From NCBI GenBank assembly GCA_934141605.1, contig CAKPCL010000005.1, positions 4,574-68,573 on the forward strand: a stretch of DNA of 64,000 nt, given 5' to 3'. Below, in pieces: positions 56,546-59,284 of this stretch (positions are counted from its first letter, which is position 1; each line of letters opens with the position of its first letter). A model generated the notes under the pieces. It did no database searches and was not told where the DNA came from. It saw nothing but the letters and a program-made list of their open reading frames with translations. The position numbers were made by a program, and so were the translations under genes. The stretch is from an uncultured Clostridia bacterium (GTDB taxonomy: Bacteria; Bacillota; Clostridia; TANB77; CAG-508).

Positions 56546-58249
56546 TTACTCTTGCTTTAATTTTTTTATATGCCAATCGCAAATATCAACAAGTAATGTA
56601 TCATCTTTAAATCCTATGTAATTCATTAATTTTTTAAATCCACTGTCTGTTTGTCCTAGTGTAATATCACCATCAATTTTTTGATAAAATTCTTTATTCA
56701 TTTTCCATAGTCTTATTGAAGTTTCCATTTCTTTTGATGCAGAAATTGTAGCCCTAGTCTTTAGACTCACATAAGGCAACATATATGGACTTCTTGCAAT
56801 CTCTTTATTGGGTAATCTTACTACTAATCCTCCGTTTTTTGCTCCTATTATAAAATCTCTAAGATCTACTATATCAAATATTTTTTCATTTCCCATACTA
56901 GCTAAAAGAAATATTTGCTCAATATTAATTCTTTCTGGCAAATTGCTCATTACTTCCCTTATTGTTTTTCCAGTTGCACTATCATCATCTACTAATATAT
57001 AGTTTCCATCTTCAATTTTTTGAATTTGATTTTTTACTGTATCATGTCCTATTCTCCCAATTAAAGATATATATTTTTTCTGTATGTCGCTTATATCAAA
57101 TAGTCTACTTGTTTCTATATTATAAGTTCCTCTATAATATGTATCTAGGCTTATTGTTTGTTTTGCTTCTAATATAGAATATGCTTTTTTTAACTGTTCT
57201 TCCATATTTATTGTTTTTACATCTAATTGATTATGAAATACTGCTCTTATTAATTCTATTAATTGCTTTAAAAACTCTTCATGTTCTTTTTGTAATATTT
57301 CTTCTTTTACATTTTGCTTGTAATTCAATAATGGTGTTATTCCCTCGTTTCTTATAACATAGTCTCCATCTTCTTTACTATAATTTTGATTATTATAGTC
57401 ATAACCTTCTCTTTGTCTTATATTTCTTGAAGAATATGTTGACACAATTGATTTATTATTAATAAAAAAATTATTTTTTCCTTTACATTTATTTTTTATT
57501 TGGTTAAATTTTTCACTATAGCCTTCTCTTTCAATGCATATTCCTATTCCTTTATTTTCAAAGCAATACATAAATTCGCTATTATCTCCACCAAAAACAT
57601 AGGCTACTTGTATGTTAGGATTTACATGTTTCCTTAAATATTGTTCTAGTCTTTGTATTATATCTGTGAAATTAATATATGTTTTCACATATATTGATTC
57701 CCAAGGATCTATCATCAACCAATTACTATCTTTAATACATTCTTGACATAGGTCTAATCTTTCATAAGAATTTATTTTATAATATGGTTTCGTTGATACA
57801 TAGCTTTCATGTGATGGTGACAAATAGCCACCTACAACATTATATCCGTTTTTTTCTAAGACTTTTTTTGCAAAATCCATCATATACAAATGTCCCTCAT
57901 GTATTGGGTCAAATCCTCCTGTTGTAAGTAATACAACTGGATTTTTTATATCTTTATCCTTCATATTTTCAATAATTTTGCTTACTGGTGTTGTAAGAAA
58001 ATTCAAATTATAATAATCTATATCTTCTAAATCTATATTGTCTAAAATAAATCCTGCTTTTATAACAATATCTATACTTAAATATTTTTTATATATTTCA
58101 CTATAATATTCATCTCTTAATATTTTCCATGCTAATTTTACTTCATCTGTTTTATTTTCTATTTTACTATATGCAATATCTACATCTGCACATTTAAAAT
58201 TTTTATCTAAATTTAATATATCCCAAAGATATTCTTTTTGTTCGCTCAT
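56546..58249 (-). CDS. fusion protein: eukaryotic-type NMNAT-like nucleotidyltransferase (HxGH) plus type I phosphoribosyltransferase domain
   Basis: TTGGFDPIHEGHLYMMDFAKK…VVGGYLSPSHESYVSTKP (NMNAT-like). C-terminal YILVDDDSATGKTIRE (PRPP-binding motif of type I PRTases). The N-terminal approx 100 aa are unassigned. Confidence 0.65.
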   Translation of the reverse strand: MSEQKEYLWDILNLDKNFKCADVDIAYSKIENKTDEVKLAWKILRDEYYSEIYKKYLSIDIVIKAGFILDNIDLEDIDYYNLNFLTTPVSKIIENMKDKDIKNPVVLLTTGGFDPIHEGHLYMMDFAKKVLEKNGYNVVGGYLSPSHESYVSTKPYYKINSYERLDLCQECIKDSNWLMIDPWESIYVKTYINFTDIIQRLEQYLRKHVNPNIQVAYVFGGDNSEFMYCFENKGIGICIEREGYSEKFNQIKNKCKGKNNFFINNKSIVSTYSSRNIRQREGYDYNNQNYSKEDGDYVIRNEGITPLLNYKQNVKEEILQKEHEEFLKQLIELIRAVFHNQLDVKTINMEEQLKKAYSILEAKQTISLDTYYRGTYNIETSRLFDISDIQKKYISLIGRIGHDTVKNQIQKIEDGNYILVDDDSATGKTIREVMSNLPERINIEQIFLLASMGNEKIFDIVDLRDFIIGAKNGGLVVRLPNKEIARSPYMLPYVSLKTRATISASKEMETSIRLWKMNKEFYQKIDGDITLGQTDSGFKKLMNYIGFKDDTLLVDICDWHIKKLKQE

Positions 58250-58288
58250 AAATTCTTTTTACTATCTACCTTTAGATTGTACCTTTCC

Positions 58289-59284
58289 TTATTTTTTTAG
58301 CCATTCATTTGTAATTTTATAATAACTATCCCATCCACCTTTTACATGACTATCATATAAATCTAAGTGTATAGCAGGAGATTTAGCCATATATTTATGC
58401 AGATTATACCTATGCAAATTTTCTAGATTTTTTGAATAAAAATCAAATTGCTTTTTTGATTTATTGTCTAAACTGGCTATTAATTTTTCCTTTTCGTTAT
58501 CTTCCATATTTAAATAATTCAAATATAACTCTACAAAATCGTATGATGCTCCAAAAACAGTTTCATCTGTTCTATTATCATACATATCTCCACTTGGTGT
58601 TACTTCTATAATGCTTTTAGGAATATCTAATTCTTTTGCAACTTTATATACTTCTGATTTATGAATATCTGATATTATTTGCACATCTACCATTCCATCT
58701 GAAGCCTTACCTACATATCCTAAATATGCCCCTTCATCTTTATTAGTTGTTCCACATATAATTGCTCCAAAACCTGCTTGATTTAATAAACTTGTTGTAT
58801 AATAAAGTATTGGTGTTCTACTATACGGAGCTAATTGTCCTATTGCCCAATCTTCTCCTTTTATTCCAATTTCTGGTTCTAAAGTATTTCTTATTTCGGT
58901 ATTTATTTTACTTAATTCCACTATGTATGGTTTAAGTTCTAATTTTTTGCATAATTCTTTTCCTCTTTCAGTTGCCTCACCTTGATTAGTTACTCCTGTT
59001 GATTTCATTACTGGTAATAACATTGGTATTATTCTTTTAATTGGCGAATTTGATTTTTCAGAAGCCTTTTTTATAATTCCTAATACTACTGCTGAATCAA
59101 TACCTCCACTTATGGCTACTACACAGGCTTTTAGTCCATATTTATCCATGTAATTATTTAATAAATTTGATTTTTGCTCTATGTATTCTTTTGCATTAAA
59201 ATTTCTGTTTTTTCTAATATTATCTAATATGTTCATTAATTGTTCACTTATTAATTTATCTGATTGCTCATTATATACTTTCAT
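58289..59284 (-). CDS. NH3-dependent NAD+ synthetase (NadE)-family amidotransferase
   Basis: PP-loop VVAISGGIDSAV, ICGTTNKDEGAYLGYVGKASDG, PSGDMYDNRTDETVFGASYDFVELYL. Start set to MKVYNE, whose ATG overlaps the upstream TGA (ATGA). Confidence 0.75.
   Translation of the reverse strand: MKVYNEQSDKLISEQLMNILDNIRKNRNFNAKEYIEQKSNLLNNYMDKYGLKACVVAISGGIDSAVVLGIIKKASEKSNSPIKRIIPMLLPVMKSTGVTNQGEATERGKELCKKLELKPYIVELSKINTEIRNTLEPEIGIKGEDWAIGQLAPYSRTPILYYTTSLLNQAGFGAIICGTTNKDEGAYLGYVGKASDGMVDVQIISDIHKSEVYKVAKELDIPKSIIEVTPSGDMYDNRTDETVFGASYDFVELYLNYLNMEDNEKEKLIASLDNKSKKQFDFYSKNLENLHRYNLHKYMAKSPAIHLDLYDSHVKGGWDSYYKITNEWLKK

Follow-up and report, generated by a model that had tools for sequence, protein, structure and literature searches.

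A widespread four-activity cassette of an oxidising enzyme, a NadE paralogue, an NMNAT domain and a divergent PRPP-loop domain, from gut bacteria to large phages

The window, that is, the whole stretch of 64,000 nt analysed here, belongs to an uncultured Clostridia bacterium (GCA_934141605.1, contig CAKPCL010000005.1, positions 4,574-68,573 of the forward strand). It contains an operon whose genes and motifs, all on the minus strand, lie where the original prediction had placed them (Table 1). In this gut Clostridium the operon adjoins mobile-element genes, being flanked by a RepA_N gene and a large serine recombinase that constitute the mobile context in the window. The locus is one copy of a widespread cassette of four activities that had not been described before; a description was sought in the literature and none was found. 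Its core consists of an oxidising enzyme, a NadE paralogue, an NMNAT domain and a divergent PRPP-loop domain.

Table 1. Features of the operon and its flanks, with positions in the window
Feature	Position	Strand	Basis or remark
RepA_N replication-initiator gene	61378..62247	-	PF06970, 82.8 bits; directly upstream of operon; mobile-element backbone
PLP-dependent decarboxylase-like protein, fold type III, Orn/Lys/DAP decarboxylase family	60159..61340	-	PF02784, 38.6 bits
Radical SAM enzyme rSAM1, 291 aa	59281..60156	-	PF04055
CX3CX2C of rSAM1	residues 15-22, nt 60091-60114	-	
NadE paralogue, 331 aa, NH3-type PP-loop amidating ligase	58289..59284	-	PF02540, TIGR00552
SGGIDS of NadE paralogue	residues 59-64, nt 59093-59110	-	
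567-aa protein, NMNAT + PRPP-loop domain	ORF 56546-58249	-	
Conserved N-terminal region of 567-aa protein, ~95 aa	57965..58249	-	
Eukaryote-type NMNAT domain	57383..57964	-	Pfam, profile searches, motifs
GGFDPIHEGH (HxGH motif)	residues 111-120, nt 57890-57919	-	567-aa protein
GGYLSPSHESYV (GGYxSPSH motif)	residues 140-151, nt 57797-57832	-	567-aa protein
DPWES motif of NMNAT domain	nt 57695-57721	-	
YSSRNIR, ISST-type (SSRxIR)	residues 272-278, nt 57416-57436	-	567-aa protein
C-terminal PRPP-loop domain, 278 aa	56549..57382	-	type-I-PRT-like only around YILVDDDSATGKT
YILVDDDSATGKT PRPP-loop motif	residues 417-429, nt 56963-57001	-	567-aa protein
GNAT acetyltransferase	56074..56532	-	PF00583, 58 bits
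Second radical SAM protein, 333 aa, C-terminal Cys-rich SPASM/twitch-like segment	55067..56068	-	PF04055, PF13353; extension, synteny
584-aa protein	53200..54954	-	weak YdiU/SelO-like N-terminal match; extension, synteny
Small protein, 117 aa, Ser-rich variable N-terminus, conserved charged coiled-coil-like C-terminal part	52650..53003	-	extension
253-aa protein, last operon gene	51773..52534	-	weak matches
Large serine recombinase	49112..50863	-	PF00239, PF07508, PF13408; downstream of operon; mobile-element backbone

The 567-aa protein joins an HxGH nucleotidyltransferase to a C-terminal PRPP-binding motif, as had been proposed, and all motifs could be located. Its N-terminal region, with invariant K42, L44, D46, Y48, Y49, Y53 and A65-G66-F67 in a 25-sequence alignment, occurs in 85 of the 151 representative architectures, and the large fusions keep it. 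The nucleotidyltransferase domain matches PF01467 with 45 bits against a Pfam cut-off of 21; the NadD-specific NCBIfam models gave 21 bits on the same protein, against cut-offs of 187-197. When the domain was compared with solved structures, a single-sequence query returned eukaryote-type NMNATs as sole relatives (E 8e-15), and profiles of 25 and 50 sequences improved the match to E 1.3e-21 and E 1.6e-30, the latter spanning the whole domain. All NMNAT matches in these searches were eukaryote-type enzymes, on which grounds a TagD, CoaD or NadD identity was rejected. The earlier reading as NMNAT rather than bacterial NadD thus holds for an intact domain. In the profile alignment the family is missing a 10-residue insertion (tpgvwipeql) present in the plant NMNAT 9rpk; this loop of the eukaryotic enzymes carries a Trp that stacks on the nicotinamide ring.

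The C-terminal domain had been taken for a type I PRTase, and this stands at the level of the PRPP-loop motif, not at that of family models or fold. When all six-frame ORFs of the window with 60 aa or more (33,599 residues) were scanned with a relaxed PROSITE-type pattern for the loop, the YILVDDDSATGKT site gave the single match. Across 50 homologues with 33-55% identity to the protein encoded here, D422 and D423 do not vary, and conservation of G427 and T429 reaches 90% or more. By hhalign the loop aligns in register with those of E. coli Apt, Hpt, Gpt and PyrE, the match being confined to 27-42 columns around it (for Apt, probability 75%, P 2.6e-5). An annotated adenine/guanine PRT of phage ME3 also matches the HMM of the domain at the loop (E 1e-6). 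No Pfam PRT model reached its threshold on the window domain (PF00156, 13.6 bits against 26.3); sub-threshold matches to PF00156 and PF15609 occur in 12 and 14 of 25 members, respectively, and in the window protein both lie at residues 407-449. The structural model (pLDDT 91) had no significant Foldseek neighbour in the PDB (best E 0.07), and among the matches listed the one low-rmsd PRT fold was PyrR 4p83 (124 columns, rmsd 4.8). The domain is a new family, with 767 clusters (50% identity) at E <= 1e-3 and neither a Pfam model nor a solved structural neighbour. Since PRT family thresholds failed and no significant PRT-fold match was obtained, it could bind a ribose-5-phosphate ligand, e.g. 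ADP-ribose, instead of catalysing PRPP transfer.

The assignment of the upstream gene to the NadE type, and its coupling to a radical SAM gene, are confirmed by family models (PF02540, 114 bits; TIGR00552, 109.6 bits against a cut-off of 63.65) and by an ATGA overlap, in which the likely start, ATG 59284, preceded by an AAGGTGG Shine-Dalgarno sequence, shares its letters with the TGA of the radical SAM gene. Among the matches listed, close homologues are nearly all 331 aa long, in agreement with this start. The full-length NadE equivalog models of NCBIfam were not reached. The closest solved relative is Francisella NadE 3fiu (E 1.9e-17), ahead of other NadEs (7e-16) by a small margin that does not indicate the substrate, and the PP-loop and C-terminal motifs align with those of solved NadEs. 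A merely generic PP-loop class was rejected on the family models and solved relatives. The protein is 44-55% identical to cassette NadEs of other phyla, but its identity to the canonical NadE (246 aa) that shares the Elusimicrobiaceae operon is 27%. Of the proposed place in the nicotinate route, family membership stands, but the enzyme is a paralogue that in Elusimicrobiaceae shares an operon with a canonical NadE, and therefore its substrate need not be NaAD.

Within the core, the oxidising or H-abstracting function falls to the radical SAM enzyme rSAM1. Its model (pLDDT 94.5) has its best Foldseek PDB matches in MoaA (TM 0.68), HydE and viperins (0.65-0.72, as TM-score normalised by target length). 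Its invariant Cys number only three, and the enzyme therefore lacks an auxiliary cluster. It adjoins the NadE paralogue in all anaerobe loci examined and is the best-conserved gene of the operon (74-95% identity); at one locus (L011) a dTMP/CMP-kinase-like gene precedes it. The oxidising enzyme of anaerobes is MoaA/viperin-like and of the radical SAM type; that of aerobes is a 2OG/PhyH dioxygenase. The dioxygenase gene either overlaps nadE or lies immediately beside it, and 17 of 151 representatives have the dioxygenase as part of the same polypeptide. An oxidising enzyme of one or the other kind is always attached, so that neither the triad of the original prediction nor its mimicry of the Preiss-Handler pathway, which would need no such enzyme, is borne out.

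The cassette spans gut bacteria to large phages. Gene order is kept in 12 Clostridia loci, the core occurs also in Elusimicrobiaceae, Bacilli and one unassigned contig, and plasmids of Leptospira, Variovorax, Streptomyces and Paenibacillus carry it. Loci L003-L005 have a form of just four genes, and plasmid and phage versions have three genes. Some bacteria combine all four activities in single proteins of 1050-1210 aa. Of the 151 representatives, 120 carry NMNAT and the C-terminal domain in one protein; 15 of them are NadE-oxygenase-NMNAT-C-terminal domain fusions, two are oxygenase-NMNAT-C-terminal domain fusions and one is a NadE-NMNAT-C-terminal domain fusion. Immediately upstream of the Leptospira cassette, and in the same orientation, is an NrtR-like gene (NF050029, 194.6 bits). 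In Elusimicrobiaceae a tightly spaced row runs from pncA through a prs-like gene, a NAPRT/NAMPT-family gene, nadE and nrtR, followed by three genes and then by rSAM1, the NadE paralogue and the NMNAT-PRPP-loop protein. Proteins of the NrtR type repress NAD genes and respond to ADP-ribose (PMC2330246). Xanthomonas phage BUDD encodes, in this order, a compact NMNAT-PRPP-loop protein, a 2OG oxygenase and NadE, two genes from a NadM-type NMNAT and four from NAMPT; these last form the pair of NARP2, the phage NAD+ reconstitution pathway of NAMPT and NMNAT (Osterman et al., bioRxiv 10.1101/2024.02.11.579819). The same three cassette genes are found in Variovorax phage V45v66. Acinetobacter phage ME3 has a 2OG oxygenase, a stand-alone homologue of the C-terminal domain (HMM E 5e-13; Foldseek E 7e-8) and NadE, with an adjoining macro-domain gene, and the NMNAT-PRPP-loop protein is present on one 314-kb IMG/VR contig. 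These neighbours across phyla support the suggested linkage to NAD and to mobile elements or phages. In marine phages (pelagiphage, cyanophage) NadE-like genes adjoin UDP-glucose 6-dehydrogenase in glycan clusters. Cassette neighbours include TIR, Abi and PLD genes, and an MFS gene is also nearby; PADLOC defence models gave no match except weak generic pVip hits for the radical SAM proteins.

From these features we infer substrates, order of steps and physiological role as follows, this being the likeliest reading at a probability of about 0.4: the cassette would be an accessory source of NAD+ or a close congener. The PRPP-loop domain would link a carboxylated pyridine-type base to PRPP, the fused NMNAT would adenylylate the mononucleotide with ATP, and the NadE paralogue would amidate the carboxylate at the dinucleotide stage or already at the mononucleotide stage, as in Francisella, giving NAD+ or a very close congener. 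The oxidising enzyme, as a best guess, would prepare or tailor the base or a ribose. Such a supply of NAD-type dinucleotide would be distinct from the housekeeping route of the host; its carriers are often plasmids, other mobile elements and large phages, and control by the ADP-ribose-sensing NrtR in some hosts suggests action when NAD is consumed or cleaved. Probably the cassette tops up NAD, or makes an NAD variant, when the pool is under attack. This reading draws on the NMNAT identity, the NadE membership and the invariant PRPP loop in register with PRTs, on the functional linkage by fusions and conserved synteny, and on phage carriage and the NrtR, salvage-gene and NARP2 neighbours. Against it, conversion of nicotinate to NAD needs no radical SAM enzyme or dioxygenase, the 10-residue NMNAT loop is missing, the C-terminal domain falls below all PRT thresholds with no significant PRT-fold match, and the marine-phage glycan clusters place NadE-family genes also in non-NAD contexts. 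Moreover, the cassette coexists with NadE and a NAPRT/NAMPT-family enzyme in Elusimicrobiaceae and with NARP2 in BUDD, which points to a different substrate or product and not to redundancy.

The oxidative step leaves room for a modified NAD analogue, and that such an analogue, not NAD+, is the product is the next reading in order, only somewhat less probable than NAD supply; the two correspond to the alternatives of the original prediction, NAD rebuilding or an NAD analogue. The oxidising enzyme would then alter a ribose by epimerisation, dehydration or oxidation, or create the carboxylate for the NadE paralogue, and the product could serve as a cofactor resistant to NADases, as a decoy for these enzymes or an inhibitor of them, as a signal, or as an antimetabolite like tiazofurin adenine dinucleotide. 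The obligatory and sometimes fused oxidising enzyme, the structural proximity of rSAM1 to the nucleotide-acting MoaA and viperin, the deletion of the pyridine-side NMNAT loop and the coexistence with canonical NadE, a NAPRT/NAMPT-family enzyme or NARP2 all fit it. The kinase-like gene of L011 recalls kinase-viperin pairs, the nearby GNAT and MFS genes resemble self-resistance or export genes, the TIR, Abi and PLD neighbours also count in its favour, and the marine-phage dehydrogenase directly beside a NadE-like gene would suit oxidation to an acid followed by amidation. However, the chemistry cannot be assigned, the reaction types of radical SAM and 2OG enzymes overlap only in part, so that their doing the same job is an assumption, and PADLOC yielded nothing beyond the pVip hits. 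NrtR control and placement in salvage operons fit plain NAD supply at least equally.

Those marine-phage clusters, pelagiphage and cyanophage alike, also bear on an improbable reading in which a non-NAD carboxylate, e.g. a sugar or other nucleotide-linked acid, is the substrate of both the oxidising enzyme and the NadE paralogue; the NMNAT-PRPP-loop protein would be a generic nucleotidyltransferase and the resemblance to NAD synthesis superficial. The NadE equivalog models that were not reached, the sub-threshold PRT models and the restriction of the hhalign match to the PRPP loop agree with it, but the NMNAT domain matches NMNATs specifically, with cytidylyltransferases far behind, and NrtR, pncA, NAPRT/NAMPT-family, nadE and NARP2 neighbours recur in three unrelated lineages.

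The Clostridia form adds a PLP decarboxylase and a GNAT to the core, with another five genes as an optional extension. The decarboxylase-like gene, first in the operon and syntenic in 10 of the 12 Clostridia loci, encodes a protein whose closest solved relatives are Lys/Orn decarboxylases (E 4e-10), with a candidate PLP lysine, located by eye, in YPLKTN from residue 63 onward. Its homologues of 350-364 aa align from residues 29-41, and the true start probably lies ~30 codons into the ORF. The GNAT forms the C-terminal part of a fused NMNAT-PRPP-loop protein in other Clostridia and Bacilli (700-705 aa; P0103-P0120 and L017). The second radical SAM protein carries CX3CX2C (residue 62) and CNGDCYPC (residue 283), with weak matches to YydG and other peptide-maturase models. 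The 584-aa protein matches NF000658 across residues 73-165 (E 6e-5), had no match in Pfam and PDB sequence searches, and has a 944-aa homologue in L017 with a weak APH match. The C-terminal part of the small protein (residues ~35-117, shorter at some loci) was found by tblastn in L006-L012 at 39-91% identity; no Pfam or NCBIfam model reached its cut-off. The 253-aa protein is possibly a class I SAM-dependent methyltransferase, judging from weak matches such as 3dh0, a SAM methyltransferase (E 0.11); its gene is syntenic in all nine-gene loci extending far enough, and a distant homologue lies beside a fused cassette in L020.

This nine-gene form could mean that the nucleotide is built on, or transferred to, a small protein of ~100 aa or a peptide, giving a peptide-nucleotide or RiPP-like product as in microcin C or a diphthamide-like protein modification, with the second radical SAM/SPASM, SelO-like and methyltransferase-like proteins as tailoring or transfer enzymes. 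The conserved extension (GNAT, rSAM/SPASM-like, 584-aa, small and 253-aa proteins), its weak peptide-maturase (YydG, WgkB, AlbA) and YdiU/SelO matches and the co-occurrence of PLP decarboxylase and GNAT, which MccE of microcin C likewise pairs, point that way. We hold it to be improbable: the core works without the extension in the four-gene and three-gene forms, the small protein is unlike a typical short precursor peptide, no leader/core organisation being seen, and the matches of the extension proteins are all far below family cut-offs.

Least probable is that the set merely duplicates the Preiss-Handler isozymes (nicotinate PRT, NaMN adenylyltransferase, NAD synthetase), with the radical SAM gene as an unrelated neighbour, for although the three activities map one-to-one onto the pathway and gut jumbo phages are reported to carry canonical pncB-nadD-nadE clusters (PMC11662467), the radical SAM gene has an ATGA overlap coupling it to nadE, is the best conserved of the operon and is replaced in aerobes by a dioxygenase that overlaps, abuts or is fused to NadE.

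With the Preiss-Handler route (PncB, NadD, NadE) the cassette shares the order of PRT, adenylyltransferase and amidation and a NadE-family enzyme, but it is without PncB and NadD, its NadE paralogue coexists with the canonical one, and the radical SAM or dioxygenase step is extra. In the Francisella route an NMN-synthetase-type NadE converts NaMN to NMN, which is then converted to NAD; the adenylyltransferase there is NadM. The likeness to this route lies in Francisella NadE 3fiu as closest solved relative of the NadE paralogue and in the acceptance of NMN by eukaryote-type NMNATs. With NARP2 the cassette would have in common the sequence from base and PRPP to mononucleotide and adenylylated dinucleotide, and carriage by phages or mobile elements, the two lying two to four genes apart in BUDD. 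It differs in that its PRT is a divergent type-I-like PRPP-loop domain fused to a eukaryote-type NMNAT, instead of a type II NAMPT fold with a NadM-Nudix, and in that the NadE paralogue and the oxidising enzyme are integral to it. The PRPP-synthetase-like Adps has a PRT-type fold, from which presumably a ribose-5-phosphate-binding loop is shared with the cassette. NARP1 (Adps and Namat) and NARP3 (PnuC and a NadR-like protein; PMC13464706) also represent accessory NAD rebuilding on phages; Pfam and NCBIfam models detected no Prs-like kinase, NAMPT-like Namat, PnuC or NadR kinase domain here. The adjacency of kinase and radical SAM genes in L011 resembles viperin-kinase pairs. Finally, QueE-QueC likewise couples a radical SAM enzyme whose substrate is a nucleotide or pterin to a PP-loop ATPase, QueC turning a carboxylate into an amide; in contrast, the cassette PP-loop enzyme is of the NadE family (QueC models, ~16-17 bits), and in structure rSAM1 resembles MoaA and viperin more closely than QueE.

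The nucleotidyltransferase part of the 567-aa protein is a eukaryote-type NMNAT (EC 2.7.7.1/2.7.7.18), predicted to adenylylate NMN or NaMN. All motifs quoted in the original prediction were found at the positions assigned to them, and its view of this domain as NMNAT-like and not a bacterial NadD was borne out: the solved relatives are all eukaryote-type NMNATs and the NadD-specific NCBIfam models stayed far below threshold. The match had an E value of 8e-15 with the single sequence and of 1.3e-21 with a 25-sequence profile. A 50-sequence profile aligned the whole domain (profile positions 88-286) with the plant-type NMNAT 9rpk at E 1.6e-30, and the same profile reached human NMNAT1 and NMNAT3 with E values between about 1e-19 and 1e-20. 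Its seven matches at E ≤ 1e-3 are all eukaryote-type NMNATs, with no NadD, NadM, CoaD or TagD among them, and the significant solved relatives comprise plant, animal or other eukaryote-type NMNATs and no others. The other assignment contemplated for this domain, a non-NMNAT cytidylyltransferase, was not supported: choline-phosphate cytidylyltransferases came up at E ≥ 0.04 only, in the search with the 25-sequence profile. The (H/T)xGH ATP motif (GGFDPIHEGH, residues 111-120) lies near the N-terminus of the Rossmann-like fold, with H117 and H120 invariant among 50 diverse homologues, and the second, ISSTxxR-type ATP motif (YSSRNIR, residues 272-278) corresponds in the alignment to ISSSRLR in 9rpk and to ISSTKIR in human NMNAT1. 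HxGH, GGYxSPSH, DPWE and SSRxIR are kept in homologues 33-55% identical to the window protein. Missing across the whole family in the profile alignment is a pyridine-side loop, the 10-residue tpgvwipeql of 9rpk, a loop that in eukaryotic NMNATs supplies the Trp stacked against the nicotinamide ring (Trp169 of human NMNAT1). F226 and F230, invariant in the close 25-sequence alignment, could substitute for the missing pyridine-stacking aromatic.

The C-terminal domain had been taken for a type I PRTase, and the PRPP-loop motif behind that assignment is present. YILVDDDSATGKT satisfies the arrangement of four hydrophobic residues, two acidic residues and a (S/T)-G-x-(S/T) turn, and matches 11 of the 13 positions of the PROSITE pattern. 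Across the ORFs of the window no other site matches a relaxed PROSITE-type pattern. The two acidic residues do not vary in 50 homologues, and the motif stands in register with the corresponding loops of four E. coli enzymes, Apt, Hpt, Gpt and PyrE. Membership of a known PRT family did not hold: the Pfam models remained below threshold (PF00156, 13.6 bits against 26.3; PF15609, 12.8 against 28.8), with the matches of the window protein confined to residues 407-449 and a best E value of 1.5e-3 among 25 members. A 141-member family profile was compared with five PRTs of E. coli (Hpt, Gpt, Apt, Upp and PyrE) and matched each at the PRPP loop only, in register, the best being Apt (probability 75%, P 2.6e-5, 35 columns). 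The AlphaFold model of the domain (pLDDT 91) has, in our reading, a strand-loop-helix order near the motif that is compatible with a PRT core. Foldseek found no match in the PDB at E ≤ 0.001, and the sole geometrically reasonable PRT-fold match was PyrR 4p83 (probability 0.28, target-length TM-score 0.33, rmsd 4.8, 124 columns). A classical PRT identity was rejected at the family level on these Pfam, E. coli profile and Foldseek results and, the recognisable likeness to PRTs being limited to the loop, the domain is therefore named the PRPP-loop (type-I-PRT-like) domain. It is a new domain family, for which no Pfam model exists, of at least 767 clusters (50% identity) at E ≤ 1e-3. The domain very probably binds a ribose-5-phosphate group, and we infer that it catalyses phosphoribosyl transfer.

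The gene upstream encodes a NadE-type protein, as had been proposed (PF02540, 114 bits against 21; TIGR00552, 109.6 against 63.65). Its claimed translational coupling to the radical SAM gene was also recovered, the start at 59284 overlapping the stop of rSAM1, the 291-aa radical SAM gene (ATGA), after an AAGGTGG ribosome-binding site. That start agrees with a length of 331 aa, shared by nearly all listed close homologues. The PP-loop SGGxDS is found as SGGIDS (residues 59-64), and the motifs GT.N..E...GY..K..DG and PS..(L/M)...TDE align with the solved NadEs 3fiu and 2e18. The full-length NadE equivalogs were not reached (NF010587, 122.6 against a cut-off of 255; NF001979, 68 against 250). An Elusimicrobiaceae operon (L013) contains both a 341-aa cassette NadE and a canonical 246-aa NadE, and the window protein is 55% identical to the former and 27% to the latter, so that the paralogue has a role distinct from that of the canonical copy. 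In two marine phages, Pelagibacter phage HTVC008M and Synechococcus phage S-SCSM2R, a NadE-like gene lies directly beside UDP-glucose 6-dehydrogenase within clusters of glycosyltransferases, methyltransferases and carbamoyltransferases, which suggests that these proteins amidate a uronic acid rather than make NAD. Given this pairing, family membership by itself does not tell the substrate of a NadE, and NaAD (or NaMN) is a candidate substrate for the cassette enzyme.

A further component of the cassette is an oxidising enzyme. The model of rSAM1 (pLDDT 94.5) has as nearest structures MoaA and the viperins, whose substrates are nucleoside triphosphates. There are no conserved auxiliary-cluster cysteines and the scores are far below cut-off (MoaA, 40 bits against 284), and a MoaA or QueE identity was rejected on both grounds. 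A radical SAM enzyme was found in every anaerobe locus examined, and an O2-dependent dioxygenase occupied the same place in every aerobe locus examined, so the two would represent a non-orthologous displacement of one oxidising step.

Coordinates of features in the window and in the loci compared with it
Locus	Positions	Strand	Feature	Remark
Window	between 49112-50863 and 61378-62247	-	nine-gene same-strand row	ORF calls and domain matches
Window	49112-50863		large serine recombinase	operon flank, opposite end from RepA_N
Window	51361-51636		91-aa small protein	
Window	51773-56532		five-gene extension	
Window	52650-53003		117-aa protein	
Window	56546-58249	-	567-aa protein	
Window	58289-59284	-	NadE paralogue	
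Window	59281-60156	-	rSAM1	
Window	61378-62247		RepA_N replication gene	operon flank
Window	61378-63175		RepA_N gene with 316-aa protein	
L001	16466-22118		second cluster	directly after nine-gene operon
L010	8916-10001		locus with extra DNA	between NadE paralogue and NMNAT-PRPP-loop gene
L011	4681-6411, 8441-9857		locus with extra DNA and replaced decarboxylase gene	extra DNA placed as in L010
L012	1885-2558		locus with extra DNA	as L010
L013	1336-5769		Prs-like and NAMPT_N/NAPRTase-family pair	Elusimicrobiaceae
L015	2954-5638, 9571-10545		rSAM1, NadE paralogue and 444-aa NMNAT-PRPP-loop genes amid repeat-protein genes	226-kb contig
L046	4998-6898		NadE-like gene beside UDP-glucose 6-dehydrogenase	Pelagibacter phage HTVC008M
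L047	5013-7016		NadE-like gene beside UDP-glucose 6-dehydrogenase	Synechococcus phage S-SCSM2R

The window is of low GC content (22-32%), and the genes of the row are, in order, PLP-dependent decarboxylase-like, rSAM1, NadE-family, 567-aa, GNAT, a second radical SAM with a Cys-rich C-terminus, 584-aa, 117-aa and 253-aa. The 91-aa protein, a putative HTH by eye, accompanies the serine recombinase on one flank, and the 316-aa protein accompanies the RepA_N gene on the other. Both are found again on either side of the operon in another locus (L008), and the operon therefore looks like the cargo of an integrated mobile element. Megablast of the 9.7-kb operon against plasmid and phage collections gave no near-identical DNA. 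A known defence system was rejected, as PADLOC 2.0 on the nine operon proteins gave nothing beyond weak generic pVip matches to the two radical SAM proteins (29-34 bits), the other seven having no match.

MAGs of gut Clostridia often contain a homologue of the 567-aa protein. In 12 such loci rSAM1, the NadE paralogue and the NMNAT-PRPP-loop protein always follow one another in this order; 10 of the 12 have the PLP decarboxylase and nine the five-gene extension that follows the 567-aa gene, this being absent in three (L003-L005). The GNAT is fused onto the NMNAT-PRPP-loop protein in forms of 700-705 aa. Searching from rSAM1 extended the range to Elusimicrobiaceae, Bacilli and one unassigned contig, with the triad retained and the decarboxylase not in all. 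Annotated plasmids of Leptospira interrogans, Variovorax, Streptomyces and Paenibacillus carry nadE, a 2OG/PhyH dioxygenase and the NMNAT-PRPP-loop protein, the first two genes sharing a four-base overlap in Leptospira, Variovorax and Streptomyces. Rosetta-stone fusions were frequent among the 151 representatives recovered with the C-terminal domain: it is joined to NMNAT in 120, to NadE, dioxygenase and NMNAT in 15 (proteins of 1050-1210 aa), to dioxygenase and NMNAT in two, and to NadE and NMNAT in one.

The cassette is also present in large phages. A direct tblastn search of GenBank phages with the 567-aa protein found nothing, and the phage members were recovered solely from the surroundings of NadE genes and by HMM and Foldseek searches. 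In Xanthomonas phage BUDD the NMNAT-PRPP-loop protein is compact, at 372 aa (hhalign probability 90.7; motifs FHDGH and MILDSDIFSGST), and is followed by a 2OG oxygenase and NadE; these three genes recur in Variovorax phage V45v66. BUDD has, separate from the cassette, a NARP2 pair, with a NadM-type NMNAT two genes on and NAMPT four genes on. Acinetobacter phage ME3 combines a 2OG oxygenase and NadE with a macro-domain gene and a stand-alone homologue of the C-terminal domain (HMM E 5e-13; Foldseek E 7e-8, no other entry of the viral structure library being significant); NARP1 operons in their extended form have been described as including macro-domain phosphatases. ME3_297 and the 380-, 198- and 152-aa neighbours in BUDD were considered as cassette parts and rejected, no relation being found. 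A 314-kb IMG/VR contig carries the NMNAT-PRPP-loop protein, with neither NadE nor oxidase detected within 8 kb of its gene.

Several neighbourhoods connect the cassette with NAD metabolism and with conflict. In L013 a tight row of pncA-like, Prs-like (TIGR01251, 89 bits), NAPRT/NAMPT-family, 246-aa nadE and nrtR-like genes is followed by three genes and then by the cassette (rSAM1, 341-aa NadE paralogue, NMNAT-PRPP-loop protein). In Leptospira the gene immediately upstream of the cassette, annotated as NUDIX, is NrtR-like (NF050029, 194.6 bits), and TIR-domain, Abi-like and HNH genes and an integrase are neighbours. A reverse transcriptase and genes of the PLD family flank further copies. Bacterial immune systems use the depletion of NAD as a central weapon. 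NrtR proteins repress NAD genes and respond to ADP-ribose (PMC2330246).

In the proposed route, a carboxylate-bearing base and PRPP would give a mononucleotide, this would be adenylylated, and the carboxylate would be amidated in the classical or the Francisella order, the end product being a nicotinamide-type adenine dinucleotide. The fusion of the PRPP-loop domain to NMNAT, and of both to the NadE paralogue, argues for such a short assembly line. The triad had been likened to the Preiss-Handler pathway, and the likeness stands as to how the cassette would work; membership does not. The cassette would work like NARP2 and Preiss-Handler yet belongs to neither, because NAMPT, PncB and NadD are absent, the PRT-like domain fails the family tests and the NadE is a paralogue. 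NARP2 combines a NAMPT-family type II PRT with NMNAT, whereas the window operon has no NAMPT or NAPRTase domain. NARP1, NARP2 and NARP3, the three phage NAD-rebuilding routes described since 2024, were rejected as identities, the domain content fitting none, and the cassette would be a further NAD-centred module with a different mechanism. The gut jumbo-phage NAD clusters contain only canonical pncB, nadD, nadE, nadR, nadM and NAMPT (PMC11662467). A literature search for the gene combination found no description, and both NARP1-3 and the jumbo-phage clusters are without it.

The cassette is tentatively regarded as an accessory NAD-pool module rather than as housekeeping synthesis (probability about 0.4), because of its association with NrtR, salvage genes, NARP2, macro domains, plasmids, phages and, in the window, flanking mobile-element genes. 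Phages and mobile elements are known to carry accessory modules of the NAD pathway, and to these the cassette would contribute a new domain family together with an extra oxidative step. Its distinctive traits are the PRPP-loop family fused to a eukaryote-type NMNAT, the dedicated NadE paralogue and the obligatory radical or oxygenase step, in a set abundant in gut Clostridia and found also in plasmids of Leptospira interrogans and in large phages. The eukaryote-type NMNATs would gain a large bacterial and phage sister group, and the oxidative step, once explained, would reveal a new NAD precursor route or a natural NAD analogue.

The product may instead be a modified NAD analogue, a possible if doubtful reading in which the oxidising enzyme tailors the ribose or creates the acid for amidation by NadE. 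It is kept alive by the oxidising step, for which the assembly line does not account (we know of no NAD route that requires a radical SAM or oxygenase step), and by the coexistence of the cassette with canonical enzymes. Tailoring of the ribose is favoured by the resemblance of rSAM1 to viperin and MoaA and by a kinase-like gene that precedes rSAM1 in one locus (L011), as kinases precede viperins; creation of an acid is favoured by the marine-phage pairs of NadE-like and UDP-glucose dehydrogenase genes. A more specific form, which we judge unlikely, is that nicotinamide ribose or ring is modified (for example, with the radical SAM or 2OG enzyme epimerising the ribose or removing water from it) to an analogue that resists or inhibits NADase effectors such as TIR and SIR2. 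If true, this analogue would be a small-molecule counter-defence or self-protection, ADP-ribose-switched through NrtR, and a device that gut bacteria share with plasmids and large phages. It is improbable that the nine-gene Clostridial version makes a product linked to a peptide or protein. There is likewise little chance that the cassette acts on a non-NAD carboxylate. A plain redundant Preiss-Handler set is very improbable.

The five-gene extension is also kept in one Bacilli MAG, and looks like a tailoring or transfer module for the small, approximately 117-aa Ser-rich/coiled-coil protein. Its radical SAM has a SPASM/twitch-like Cys motif, the 253-aa protein is methyltransferase-like and the 584-aa protein has a weak YdiU/SelO-like N-terminus; the last two had no convincing relatives among solved structures. 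In its high content of Ser, Arg and Glu the 117-aa protein differs from its neighbours. Related loci conserve all of it but the first ~35 residues, so the ORF call may not give the true start, or a processed form may exist.

In L013 the 258-aa Prs-like protein adjoins the 492-aa NAMPT_N/NAPRTase-family protein, and the pair could be an ordinary prs-nadV of an NrtR regulon or Adps-Namat (NARP1-like); the three genes between nrtR and the cassette encode radical SAM proteins of 337 and 224 aa and a 185-aa protein. The extra DNA of L011 encodes three small predicted membrane proteins. Upstream in this locus the decarboxylase is replaced by a 315-aa protein and the dTMP/CMP-kinase-like protein (PF02223, 60.7 bits); a by-eye resemblance of the former to isochorismatase/nicotinamidase was dropped, as Pfam, NCBIfam and PDB gave no support. 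The second cluster of L001 comprises a radical SAM, a CoaE/AAA_18-radical SAM fusion (483 aa), DUF3419, an ATP-grasp-like protein and a methyltransferase. In L015 the cassette genes lie amid several paralogous genes for proteins with ~35-residue repeats (consensus roughly PEFNxxQMxEIRxGLExGLDVSxYA). The 359-kb 'plasmid' of Paenibacillus thiaminolyticus (L024), which bears a copy of the cassette, has in addition genes for IF-3, FtsH, RNase H, SLOG, macro-domain, SprT-like and YopX proteins; it resembles a giant phage or a phage-plasmid more than it does an ordinary plasmid.
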